This document shows positions 26,728 through 30,143 of a DNA stretch of 64,000 nucleotides, one piece after another (position 1 is the first letter of the stretch; each line of letters starts with the position of its first letter). A program made the position numbers and the translations under genes. The stretch spans positions 1 through 64,000 of the forward strand of contig JBDGTS010000020.1 in NCBI GenBank assembly GCA_042216675.1, in the 5' to 3' direction. The notes beneath the pieces are model-generated. The model made no database searches and was not told where the DNA came from. It was given only the letters and a program-made list of their open reading frames with translations. This DNA is from Halobacteriaceae archaeon (GTDB lineage: Archaea > Halobacteriota > Halobacteria > Halobacteriales > Halobacteriaceae).

Positions 26728-26728
26728 G

Positions 26729-26813
26729 CGCCGAGGGGGAGATTTGAACTCCCGAGTCCTCTCGGACAGTTGATCTCGAATCAACCGCCTTGGCCGGGCT
26801 AGGCTACCTCGGC
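26729..26813 (-). tRNA. tRNA-Ser(CGA)
   Basis: Reverse strand GCCGAGGTAGCCTAGCCCGGCCAAGGCGGTTGATTCGAGATCAACTGTCCGAGAGGACTCGGGAGTTCAAATCTCCCCCTCGGCG: acceptor stem, CGA anticodon, long variable arm, T-loop; no encoded CCA. Confidence 0.95.
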
Positions 26814-26938: not shown

Positions 26939-27091
26939 ATGGTGGAGGGTACCGACAGTTCGGCAGACGTACCGTGGCCCCAGCAGCTACTGGAGAGCGA
27001 GTGGCTCCTCGCGGGAGCGGCACTGCTCTTCTTCACGCTGTCGTACATCGTCTGGGGCCTAATTGACCTACTGACGATTCCGTCGGGGTGA
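26939..27091 (+). CDS. Small single-TM protein, putative small subunit of the heme-copper enzyme (50 aa, not in ORF track)
   Basis: MVEGTDSSADVPWPQQLLESEWLLAGAALLFFTLSYIVWGLIDLLTIPSG*; ends 4 nt before subunit II. Confidence 0.7.
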   Translation: MVEGTDSSADVPWPQQLLESEWLLAGAALLFFTLSYIVWGLIDLLTIPSG

Positions 27092-27095
27092 TTCC

Positions 27096-27656
27096 ATGGC
27101 CGACCAATCACCGCTCGACAGACCCGAGGGGGACTGGTGGAACACCGAGGTCAACCGCCGCGAGACACTGTGGCTCGGCATCTCCGGCGTCTGGGCCGCG
27201 ACCATCTTCGGGTGGATGCTCGGGTGGACGCAGGTGGGCGACCAGAACCAGATCGGGCCGACCTACGAGGTGCCGCCCAAAGAGTACCAGAACAAAGTGG
27301 CGTCGTACAAGGAGACGGCCGGCACGACCCAAATCGGGGGCGAGGAGGTCCTCGTCCCCGCGGGCGAAGACGTCTACGTCGGCGCACTCCAGTGGGCGTG
27401 GGACGGCCTCCCCGTGGCGCTGGAGGCGGGCAAGACGTACACGTTCCATCTGGGCTCCTACGACGTGCAACACGGCTTCTCTATCCGCCGGGAGGCGAAC
27501 CTGAGCCAGCAGATATCGCTGCAGATACTCCCCGGCTACGAGTGGGAGCTAGAGATGTCCTTCGACGACCCCGGCACGTACCACGTCGTCTGCAACGAGT
27601 TCTGTGGCACCGGCCACCGGTCGATGCACGGGAAACTGTTCGTGAAGGGTGACTGA
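27096..27656 (+). CDS. Heme-copper oxidoreductase subunit II (CuA domain, one TM)
   Basis: DVQHGF and CNEFCGTGHRSM CuA ligands. Confidence 0.9.
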   Translation: MADQSPLDRPEGDWWNTEVNRRETLWLGISGVWAATIFGWMLGWTQVGDQNQIGPTYEVPPKEYQNKVASYKETAGTTQIGGEEVLVPAGEDVYVGALQWAWDGLPVALEAGKTYTFHLGSYDVQHGFSIRREANLSQQISLQILPGYEWELEMSFDDPGTYHVVCNEFCGTGHRSMHGKLFVKGD

Positions 27657-29379
27657 AATGTTGGAACTGAGTACCTACGACTACGACGACGACGGCTTCC
27701 GGACGTGTGGCGTCACCGGTCTCCGCATCCACAAGTCCGCGGAGGACATGGTGAAACTGTTCGGCGTGACGGCCATCCTGTCGCTCACGGTGGGGGGTCT
27801 CTTCGCCTTCTTCGTCGCGATGACGCGCTGGGAAGTCGTCGGTCTCCTGTCGCCGGGTGAGTTCTACCGGTACCTCACGGTCCACGCGTGGTATCTGCTC
27901 ATCTTCTGGATGGTGTTCATGGAAATCGCCATCCTCTACGTCGGCGGGCCGTTCGTCCTCGGACGACGGTTGCCGCTGAAGCGCGTCTCGTGGGCCGGCT
28001 ACGGCCTGATGGTCGCGGGTGCGCTGACCATCACCTACGGTGCGTGGACGCAAGAACTGCCGAATCAGGCGCCGCTGCTCACCTCCTACGTCCCGCTGAA
28101 GTCGCCCACGTCGTTCTACCTCGGCGTGGACGCGTTCCTGCTGGGCGCGGTGGTGGCGGCGGTACCGTTCCTCGTCTCCATCTGGCAGGAGAAGCGAGAG
28201 AAGCCGAATCAGGCACTCCCGCTCATCGCGTTCGGGGCGTTCATCACCGCCATCGTGGCGCTGGAGGCCCTCGTCGGCGGCCTCATCACGTACGTCCCCA
28301 CCCTGCTCTGGCGGGCGGGCTTCCTCGAACACCTCGACGCCGCGTGGTACCGACAGATGTACTGGATCGTCGGCCACGGCACCCAGCAGATCAATCTGCT
28401 GGCGATGATCACCATCTGGTACTTCCTCACGCACGTCCTCGGCGGCGCGGAAGTGGCCAGCGAGAAAGTGTCCCGGTTCGCGTTCGTCCTCTATCTGTTC
28501 TTCATCAACATGGGTGCGGCTCACCACCTGATGTCCGACCCCGCCGTCTCGACGGGGTGGCGGCTCTGGAACACCTCCTACGCCGCCTACGGCGCGGTCA
28601 TCGCGTCGATGATTCACGCCTTCGCCATTCCGGCGGGCCTCGAAGTCGGCCGCCGCCGGAAGAACAAGGGGGGTGGCACCTTCGGGTGGCTCTGGTCCGC
28701 GCCGTGGAAGGACCCCGGCTTCTCGGCCACCATCCTCTCCATCATCCTCTTTGGCTTCCTCGGGGGCATCACCGGCGTGATGATGGGGCAGATGCAGCTG
28801 AACATGACGTGGCACAACACGCTCGCCGTGCCCGGGCACTTCCACGCCACCGTCGCCACGGGGACGACGCTCGCGTTCATGGGGCTGGCGTACTACGTCC
28901 TCAGACTCGTCTTCGGTCGCGACTGGATCGGGGGCATCCTCGCGACGGTCCAGCCGTTCCTCTACGCCGGCGCGATGGGGCTGGTCTGCCTGATGATGAT
29001 GTACCTCGGGGTGCTGTTCGGCGTCCCCCGGCGCCACCCGAGCGTCATGGACATCCCCGGCGCCGCCTTCGACTTCTCGCCGGCGAAGCCGTTCTTCGCG
29101 GTGTTCGGCATCGCCGCCATCCTCGCAATCCTCGGCGGCGCGTTGTTCGTCGCCCTCGCCGTCGGGACCCTCCTGTTCGGCGACGAGTACGACGGCTCAC
29201 TGCCCGAGGAGACGCCGGTGCCCGATGGCGGGGAGACGGAGGATTCCCAGTCGAAGGCCGCCCACGCGTTCAGCATGCGCGGCACGTTCATCCTGACGAT
29301 GGTGTTCTTCGTCACCTTCGTCGTGTTGTACGCGCTGAACTGGTATCTGCTCGCACAAGTGTGGAGCATCGGGCCGTGA
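27649..29379 (+). CDS. Heme-copper oxidoreductase subunit I, probable eNOR-type nitric oxide reductase
   Basis: Six His ligands (TVHAW, VGHGTQQ, AAHHL, GHFHA); Gln where the cross-linked Tyr should be; Glu in TM2 (WMVFME). Confidence 0.8.
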   Translation: MTEMLELSTYDYDDDGFRTCGVTGLRIHKSAEDMVKLFGVTAILSLTVGGLFAFFVAMTRWEVVGLLSPGEFYRYLTVHAWYLLIFWMVFMEIAILYVGGPFVLGRRLPLKRVSWAGYGLMVAGALTITYGAWTQELPNQAPLLTSYVPLKSPTSFYLGVDAFLLGAVVAAVPFLVSIWQEKREKPNQALPLIAFGAFITAIVALEALVGGLITYVPTLLWRAGFLEHLDAAWYRQMYWIVGHGTQQINLLAMITIWYFLTHVLGGAEVASEKVSRFAFVLYLFFINMGAAHHLMSDPAVSTGWRLWNTSYAAYGAVIASMIHAFAIPAGLEVGRRRKNKGGGTFGWLWSAPWKDPGFSATILSIILFGFLGGITGVMMGQMQLNMTWHNTLAVPGHFHATVATGTTLAFMGLAYYVLRLVFGRDWIGGILATVQPFLYAGAMGLVCLMMMYLGVLFGVPRRHPSVMDIPGAAFDFSPAKPFFAVFGIAAILAILGGALFVALAVGTLLFGDEYDGSLPEETPVPDGGETEDSQSKAAHAFSMRGTFILTMVFFVTFVVLYALNWYLLAQVWSIGP

Positions 29380-29444: not shown

Positions 29445-30143
29445 GTGAGCGAGGATGCCTCGCCGGGTGCGGCCCTCCGCACCGGCCTGAAGGCGAGTTG
29501 GAACGCGCTCAAGACGGTGTACTACGCCAACAGCGTCAGTTGGCGCGTCCTGAAGGCGGGGGCGCTGATATTCCTCGGCTTCTTCGTCTGGGCCGGGGCG
29601 AACATCCTCCACTCGGTCCAGCCGGGGTGGGACGTCCTCGCGTATCCGATGGCGTACGGCTTCCTGCTCATCGTCTACGGCCCGATTCACCACCTCGTCG
29701 TCATCCCGGTGGCGCTCCGGTGGCGGCGAACGGGTGACAGTCGGCAGGCAGTCGGCAAGCGCCTCCCGAACGCGGGGCTGGCACTGTTCTTCGTCGCCGT
29801 CCTCGTCCTCGGGACGTTCCCCGCGGGGCCGATGACCATCGACTTCGCGTCGGCGCTCGACGAGTCCGGCGTCGACGTGGCGCCGGAGATGCACTGCGTG
29901 AAGTCGGCGAACGGCACCATTCACTGCCACCTCACGGAGTCACAGGGGGTGGCCCGCGTCGAGGTGGTGAGCGGCGAGGCGCAACTCGCGGTGGACGAGG
30001 ACCCGCCCTACGAGTTCGAGTTCTCGGAGTCGCAAGTCAACACGGTGCTCGGCGAACGGAAGTTCACGGTGCGCTTGCTCGACGAGAACGGCGGGCTAGT
30101 GCGGCGCTACACCCGCCGCACGGCGATGATTTCGGAGGGGTGA
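29445..30143 (+). CDS. Membrane protein (about 3 TM plus C-terminal beta domain) downstream of the heme-copper operon
   Basis: Hydrophobic N-terminal half; HCVK...IHCH; acidic beta-rich C-terminus. Confidence 0.65.
   Translation: MSEDASPGAALRTGLKASWNALKTVYYANSVSWRVLKAGALIFLGFFVWAGANILHSVQPGWDVLAYPMAYGFLLIVYGPIHHLVVIPVALRWRRTGDSRQAVGKRLPNAGLALFFVAVLVLGTFPAGPMTIDFASALDESGVDVAPEMHCVKSANGTIHCHLTESQGVARVEVVSGEAQLAVDEDPPYEFEFSESQVNTVLGERKFTVRLLDENGGLVRRYTRRTAMISEG

Follow-up and report, generated by a model that had tools for sequence, protein, structure and literature searches.

The eNOR-type nitric oxide (NO) reductases are B-family-derived members of the heme–copper superfamily that lack the active-site tyrosine and carry a CuA-containing subunit (Murali et al., PNAS 2024, PMC11214002). 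The eNOR of Rhodothermus marinus DSM 4252, an organism with a full denitrification set, reduces NO with a kcat of 0.68 per s at 25 °C, fails to reduce O2 with any donor tried, and harbors Fe at the nonheme site and a modified heme a (As); the requirement for heme a ties eNOR to O2 (PMC11214002). Glutamine at the tyrosine position is held to be diagnostic of eNOR (Schwartz et al., PMC8756737), a source that credits eNOR in Natronomonas to Hemp & Gennis 2008 and notes that alternative substrates cannot be excluded. The family was proposed in 2008, was found to comprise a cluster of genes across Halobacteria in 2022, and received biochemical validation in 2024. Here we analyze a stretch of 64,000 nucleotides (nt) from a Halobacteriaceae archaeon (GCA_042216675.1, contig JBDGTS010000020.1, positions 1-64,000, forward strand; G+C ~70%), referred to in full as the window, which very probably encodes a four-gene cassette for a B-family-derived NO reductase of this superfamily that would make nitrous oxide (N2O) from NO.

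The eNOR family is "common in hypersaline environments" (PMC11214002), and its haloarchaeal members are in print: Dataset S4 of that paper lists proteins of Halovivax asiaticus and "haloarchaeon 3A1-DGR" as ENOR, and the ENOR sheet of Dataset S8 includes Natronomonas pharaonis, Halovenus, Halobacterium, Halolamina and others. In a curated review of haloarchaeal annotation, N. pharaonis NP_4296A/NP_4294A are coxA3/coxB3 (Table 1, row 1h), with Thermus ba3 as their sole characterized relative at 28% and 33% identity (PMC8305020); these two genes may be the Natronomonas eNOR still carrying an oxidase name. A preliminary description of the window had proposed an archaeal, CuA-fed NO reductase of the eNOR type that annotation pipelines would mislabel as an oxidase. 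Residues, tree placement and gene context all support this proposal, and close homologues are indeed named "cytochrome c oxidase subunit I" or "cbb3-type cytochrome c oxidase subunit I" in databases. The idea is not new, since the family and its haloarchaeal members have been published (PMC11214002, PMC8756737); both eNOR in haloarchaea and the mislabeling are on record, and the window enzyme belongs to that family as an ordinary member.

The cassette consists of four closely packed open reading frames (ORFs) on the + strand that encode proteins of 50, 186, 576 and 232 residues, with an 8-nt overlap where subunit II ends and subunit I starts. Its features are as follows.

26939-27091, + strand: small ORF, 50 residues, with one predicted transmembrane (TM) helix; candidate small subunit; ends 4 nt before subunit II.
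27096-27656, + strand: subunit II, 186 residues; N-terminal TM helix and cupredoxin domain with the CuA site.
27649-29379, + strand: subunit I, 576 residues; PF00115 match; putative catalytic heme/nonheme-metal subunit of the eNOR type.
27922-27924, + strand: codon of Glu92 in TM2 of subunit I, from conservation and alignment.
28375-28389, + strand: helix VI motif H243-G-T-Q246-Q247, from alignment to ba3 and Rhodothermus sp.
28420-28422, + strand: codon of Tyr258, which aligns with the K-channel residues ba3 Y248 and R. marinus eNOR Y256.
28606-28617, + strand: S320-M-I-H323, which aligns with ba3 S309/T312 and eNOR S318/H321.
29445-30143, + strand: 232-residue membrane protein; candidate eNOR accessory subunit or assembly factor.

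Subunit I matches the Pfam COX1 family (PF00115) at 1.1e-52, and its best solved relatives are the B-family ba3 oxidases of Aquifex and Thermus (phmmer, E ~1e-36). The six His ligands reported earlier are all present (H79, H243, H292, H293, H397 and H399), and translation places H243 at nt 28375, Q247 at nt 28387 and E92 at nt 27922, so that the G-H-G-T-Q-Q sequence of helix VI and the W-M-V-F-M-E sequence of TM2 both lie exactly where the preliminary description had put them. In the phmmer alignment to the Thermus ba3 chains, "ghgtqq" of the window lies over "ghpivy" of ba3, and the second Gln (Q247) therefore stands for the cross-linking Tyr (ba3 Y237); likewise, S-M-I-H lies over S-L-M-T, and the K-channel Thr of ba3 is thus a His (H323) in the window. 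The corresponding residues of R. marinus eNOR are Q-245 (for ba3 Y-237), S-318, H-321, Y-256 and E-(II)21 (Dataset S1, PMC11214002), in agreement with the statement in the preliminary description that eNOR has Gln at the Tyr position.

To place these residues among relatives, one genome per species was scanned, yielding 538 relatives of which the best 80 loci were kept; these derive from Halobacteria, Gemmatimonadota, Bacteroidota, Rhodothermales, Salinivenus and two Rhodothermus sp. metagenome-assembled genomes (MAGs), and all conservation counts refer to the 79 subunit I rows and 77 subunit II rows aligned from them. H243, H292, H293, S320, H323, H397 and H399 are invariant (79/79), and H79, E92, Q246, Q247 and Y258 are each kept in 78/79 rows, the odd row being the disrupted locus L042, pinned down as such for positions 246/247 only. 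Gln-Gln is found at the motif in all of the 120 best database matches (62-100% identity). Retention in 78/79 relatives argues that neither the Gln-Gln motif nor E92, the TM2 Glu singled out earlier, is a chance feature. The Glu92 column holds I, L or A in 13 B-family rows, which makes Glu92, on these alignments, specific to the eNOR lineage, where it may serve as a metal ligand or a proton relay; its ba3 counterpart shifts by one register between phmmer and MAFFT.

Subunit II gives weak matches to PF00116 (COX2) and TIGR02866 (CoxB). Its CuA set (H126, C166, E168, C170, H174 and M177) is as complete as first described, with all six residues kept in 77/77 homologues, and Glu23 at the channel entrance, the equivalent of E-(II)21 in the R. 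marinus enzyme, is kept in 76/77 rows. A C-terminal plastocyanin-type (halocyanin) domain is fused to subunit II in 16/80 related loci, and the window copy lacks it; because such fusions occur in close relatives, halocyanin is the likely electron donor. The fusions are found at the following loci.

L019:3028-3999: subunit II-halocyanin fusion (PF00127 at 3.7e-18).
L020, L021, L025, L026, L028-L030, L032, L036-L038, L040-L042 and L060: the 15 other fusion loci.

The two Rhodothermus sp. subunit I proteins are both 63% identical to the window protein. Numbered from the chosen ATG (in one protein, no other in-frame start is found near the point where the alignment begins; in the other, there is a single later GTG), they carry H241, Q245, Y256, S318 and H321, with E21 in subunit II, which are the published R. 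marinus numbers, and the window protein has the same diagnostic residues at a constant offset of +2 (Q247, Y258, S320, H323 and E23(II)). The Halovivax asiaticus match is 63% identical to the window protein, and named Halobacteria homologues are 60-78% identical. We built a quick maximum-likelihood IQ-TREE phylogeny, with SH-aLRT support only, from 48 rows (18 named loci, 27 representatives of 50% clusters, the window protein and the two other oxidases of this genome). Halovivax asiaticus and Rhodothermus sp. share a 20-row clade (SH-aLRT 100) with the window protein, which lies there in a subclade with Halorarius, Halobacterium and Halolamina. A separate B-family clade comprises the 13 rows with H-x-x-x-Y and Ser...Thr, including this genome's own contig-C5 protein, and the A-type outgroup is likewise separate from the eNOR clade. 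The tree compared A-type, B-family and eNOR sequences only; of the broader phylogeny proposed in the preliminary description, the grouping with eNOR apart from the B-family and A-type enzymes was recovered.

Motif comparisons with the other members of the superfamily gave the following. The H-x-x-x-Y motif of ba3-type O2 reductases is replaced by H-G-T-Q-Q in the window. The helix VI Glu of cNOR/qNOR and nNOR (nNOR E-242, Dataset S1) is likewise a Gln, with channel residues present, and the position of the Asn that bNOR and sNOR have in place of the Tyr (N-245 and N-243, Dataset S1) is occupied by Q247. In gNOR, one active-site His is changed to Asp, and subunit II lacks the CuA residues (PMC11214002); the window has the three metal-site His and all CuA residues.

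Two further groups emerged from these comparisons. A neighboring group shares the eNOR-type TM2 Glu and Ser...His channel and reads H-x-x-Q-Y, so that the Tyr is kept; it accounts for 17 of the 120 matches to representative P0125 (P0125 and P0392-P0407; also P0130, P0131 and P0143), its named members are Hodarchaeales, Kariarchaeaceae or Heimdallarchaeota MAG proteins, and the group may represent an intermediate between O2 and NO reductases, or else a reversion. The haloarchaeal enzyme has 59-66% identity to MAG proteins assigned to Gemmatimonadota, Bacteroidota, Rhodothermota, Actinomycetota and Aquisalimonas (bacterial loci L043-L051, L053-L057, L065, L068, L071, L074, L075, L077, L079, L082 and L085). 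The rows of these proteins sit among haloarchaeal clades, with the Aquisalimonas row in one clade with Natronomonas and Halovenus, a pattern suggestive of interdomain gene transfer or, for some of them, of misbinning. A bacterial Q-Q representative joins the 20-row clade at support 100; a homologue search from the bacterial Q-Q representative P0124 gave, as named matches, Deltaproteobacteria MAG proteins only.

From these residues, a path for electrons and protons can be proposed. A blue-copper halocyanin, the donor suggested by the fusions in relatives, would reduce the CuA center of subunit II, from which electrons would pass to a bis-His low-spin heme (H79/H399) and on to a binuclear site formed by a high-spin heme (H397) and a nonheme metal bound by H243, H292 and H293; these ligands can be seen in the sequence, and by analogy the metal would be Fe. 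As in the R. marinus enzyme, this site would reduce 2 NO to N2O, and because Q247 replaces the cross-linked Tyr, it presumably could not supply the fourth electron needed for O2 reduction. Protons would probably be drawn from the cytoplasm via a K-channel analogue formed by E23(II), H323, S320, Y258 and Q247, so that turnover may be electrogenic. The NO would come from two NirK enzymes whose genes lie on other contigs, and N2O would be the end product, since no nosZ was found.

The host MAG (2.15 Mb, 58 contigs, 80% complete) harbors three subunit I genes: an A-type gene, a ba3-type gene and the window gene. Given the ba3 and A-type oxidases, the Gln variant is an additional paralogue and not the sole oxidase-like enzyme of this organism. 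These other oxidases are encoded as follows.

Contig C13: A-type oxidase, G-H-P-E-V-Y.
Contig C5, 70827-75143 (locus L002): ba3-type oxidase, G-H-A-V-V-Y and Ser...Thr, with a CuA subunit II.
L002, 1165-2850 (-), 2851-3378 (-) and 3385-4278 (-): ORFs of the C5 ba3 operon.

Upstream in the C5 ba3 operon lies a gene for a 297-residue halocyanin-like protein with a hydrophobic C-terminal TM tail, which resembles the halocyanin/CbaD fusions of other haloarchaea (PMC8305020, PMC3128077). A profile search of the MAG revealed two nirK genes on other contigs (377 and 371 bits against an equivalog cutoff of 296), as would fit the dispersed denitrification route raised in the preliminary description. 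Next to one of them, in divergent orientation, is a halocyanin-like gene (L004:2726-3238, contig C21), whose product could plausibly donate electrons to both NirK and eNOR. The genome search proposed earlier thus returned two nirK genes and CtaA-like genes; nosZ was not found in this 80%-complete MAG, where two nosZ models matched only CuA domains, nor was narG, for which the narG and type II DMSO-reductase models matched only a formate-dehydrogenase/Nas-like enzyme. The narG match, on contig C7, was rejected as this formate-dehydrogenase/Nas-like molybdoenzyme, which scores well below every cutoff.

An association of eNOR with nirK is also seen across genomes. Of the 80 related loci, 11 have nirK inside the 4-kb flanks retrieved around eNOR. 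In a sample of 150 Halobacteria species, in which eNOR orthologues were called at E ≤1e-120, eNOR occurs in 27 species over 12/57 genera and nirK in 75; in descriptive terms, nirK is present in 26/27 eNOR carriers versus 49/123 noncarriers, and in 9 carriers no more than 10 kb separates the two genes. Two eNOR cassettes occur in one genome in Natrarchaeobius chitinivorans (L092 and L093) and on a single contig of one Bacteroidota MAG (L044 and L046), where the two copies give identical tblastn results and nirK is near each. A UbiA-family (heme O synthase-like) gene is found within 4 kb in 35/80 loci, and in 18/80 it lies between subunit I and the 232-residue protein gene, as listed here.

L019:5713-6822 and 17 further loci: UbiA-family insertion (PF01040 at 4.5e-50), absent from the window.

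The strongest alternative to a NO reductase acting in an energy-conserving nitrite-to-N2O step is a true NO reductase that serves mainly in NO detoxification under microoxic conditions. The cassette is not clustered with nirK, no nar or nos was found in the MAG, the link of heme a to O2 noted above would suit such a role, and one of the 27 eNOR carriers lacks a nirK match; this is countered by the two nirK genes of the MAG, the strong association with nirK across genomes and the close linkage in 11/80 loci, and the conservation of the K-channel residues suggests that the enzyme is coupled to the membrane potential. We regard detoxification as an unlikely main role. Far less probable is an O2-reducing, ba3-like B-family oxidase with an unusual active site, perhaps one that uses Tyr282. 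It would account for the ba3 oxidases being the best solved relatives, for the retained CuA subunit and K-channel analogue, and for the public annotation as an oxidase, and Tyr282, which precedes H292 by ten residues on helix VII, is kept in 78/79 relatives. The migrated Tyr of C-family oxidases lies six residues from the ligand His, and at ten residues Y282 would, by this comparison, probably lie too far along helix VII to reach and replace the cross-linked Tyr. The Rhodothermus sp. proteins have this Tyr as well. No migrated Tyr is reported for the eNOR family in PMC11214002, and the characterized eNOR, which shares the Gln found in place of the cross-linking Tyr in 78/79 relatives, does not reduce O2 (PMC11214002). 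Moreover, the genome already has canonical ba3 and A-type oxidases, and the window protein falls apart from all 13 H-x-x-x-Y rows.

Several points nevertheless weigh against assigning NO reduction to the window enzyme. Besides the conserved Tyr282, the functional assignment comes by way of a relative, 63% identical, of the one characterized enzyme. Congeneric Rhodothermus sp. MAG proteins stood in for the R. marinus eNOR sequence, and the Halovivax row of the tree was equated with the Dataset S4 ENOR entry (WP_007700404.1) by species name. In the window, the cassette has no nirK, halocyanin or ctaB gene as a neighbor. The failure to find nosZ and narG concerns a MAG that lacks 20% of its genome, and the co-occurrence counts are descriptive only, because the sampled species are related. 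Another substrate, an option that PMC8756737 leaves open, or decay to an inactive paralogue is nonetheless very improbable, as the ligand and channel residues are intact and conserved, the ORFs are uninterrupted, and the four genes stay together across two domains.

The outer two genes of the cassette belong to no known family: neither the 50-residue nor the 232-residue protein has a Pfam or NCBIfam match. By tblastn, a homologue of the 50-residue protein is encoded directly upstream of subunit II in 72/80 loci, archaeal and bacterial, and at least 90% of 73 rows retain P12, Q15, W22, Y36, W39, G40 and D43. The cbaD/subunit IIa gene occupies the same place in B-type oxidase operons (PMC3128077); this likeness is positional only, and BLASTP gave no alignment between the 50-residue protein and the CbaD-like tail encoded in the ba3 operon of this MAG. 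A homologue of the 232-residue protein is encoded downstream of subunit I in 65/80 loci, which include Rhodothermus, Bacteroidota and Salinivenus and none of the Gemmatimonadota loci. The gene is found in 26/27 eNOR-carrying Halobacteria, the miss being an eNOR cut by a contig end, and in 1/123 eNOR-negative Halobacteria, as a weak fragment with a stop codon. Both outer genes are inherited with eNOR across Archaea and Bacteria and essentially never occur without it.

The predicted structure of the 232-residue protein (pLDDT 92.5) has four helices and a C-terminal immunoglobulin (Ig)-like sandwich, with C151 and C161 invariant in 66/66 rows. Fold searches returned generic Ig-like/FnIII-like sandwiches only (Foldseek E >1e-3; VIA Z ≤8.6), and the Protein Atlas returned only "hypothetical protein" clusters. 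Complex prediction for subunit I and the 232-residue protein, run without controls, scored 0.01, below the mark, and speaks neither for nor against binding. We found no description of the two proteins in the eNOR texts consulted, the SI Appendix of PMC11214002 aside. We tentatively raise the possibility that they are dedicated eNOR subunits or assembly factors, in which case the halocyanin fusions would identify the haloarchaeal donor and eNOR would be a four-component system as opposed to the two-subunit enzyme usually described.

Outside the cassette, a tRNA-Ser gene (anticodon CGA) lies directly upstream on the opposite strand (26728-26813, -). A Pfam scan of nine neighboring ORFs in the flanks (14-42 kb) revealed no denitrification gene, consistent with the earlier remark that nirK, nar and nosZ are missing from the window; the domains found are LeuA-like synthase, zf-AN1, amidohydrolase, PhyH, sulfur-transport-like, DUF6691, GDSL hydrolase, radical SAM and enolase-superfamily. 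The stretch is contained in two salt-lake DNA runs, from which it may derive, and there is no RNA run among the 14 sequencing runs listed for it.

The practical consequence of this analysis is one of reannotation: a haloarchaeal gene labeled "cytochrome c / cbb3-type oxidase subunit I" is to be read as encoding a NO reductase. The inferred physiology of the MAG would shift accordingly from purely aerobic to that of a partial denitrifier (nitrite to N2O), and such an organism would be a possible source of N2O in salt lakes. The additions to what is published are modest, namely, the strict four-gene cassette, the association with nirK within Halobacteria and the subunit II-halocyanin fusions that point to the donor. 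For the field, no new question is opened, and the conserved accessory genes are a lead.

The closest characterized system is R. marinus eNOR, with which the window enzyme shares the Gln in place of Tyr, the Ser/His/Tyr channel and subunit II Glu at the same spacing and the CuA subunit; the host is an archaeal halophile instead of a thermophilic bacterium, and its MAG shows only nirK. In the Rhodothermus sp. eNOR loci, all four genes, the small ORF and the 232-residue protein gene among them, follow one another as they do in the window. Haloarchaeal homologues share family and motifs at the identities given above; unlike some relatives in its subclade, the window cassette has neither the halocyanin fusion nor the UbiA-family gene. 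The B-family ba3 oxidases (Thermus thermophilus and the genome's own C5 copy) have the fold, the six His ligands and the CuA subunit II in common with the window enzyme, as well as a single K-type channel and, upstream of subunit II, a small gene, whereas they retain H-x-x-x-Y, Ser...Thr and a hydrophobic residue in the Glu92 column and form a separate clade. The cNOR and qNOR enzymes draw electrons from cytochrome c or quinol. They belong to the same superfamily, share the proposed reaction and also lack the active-site Tyr, whereas the window enzyme has Gln on helix VI, a CuA subunit and a conserved channel. In cNOR and qNOR, a Glu provides the fourth FeB ligand, and there is no conserved proton channel (PMC11214002).

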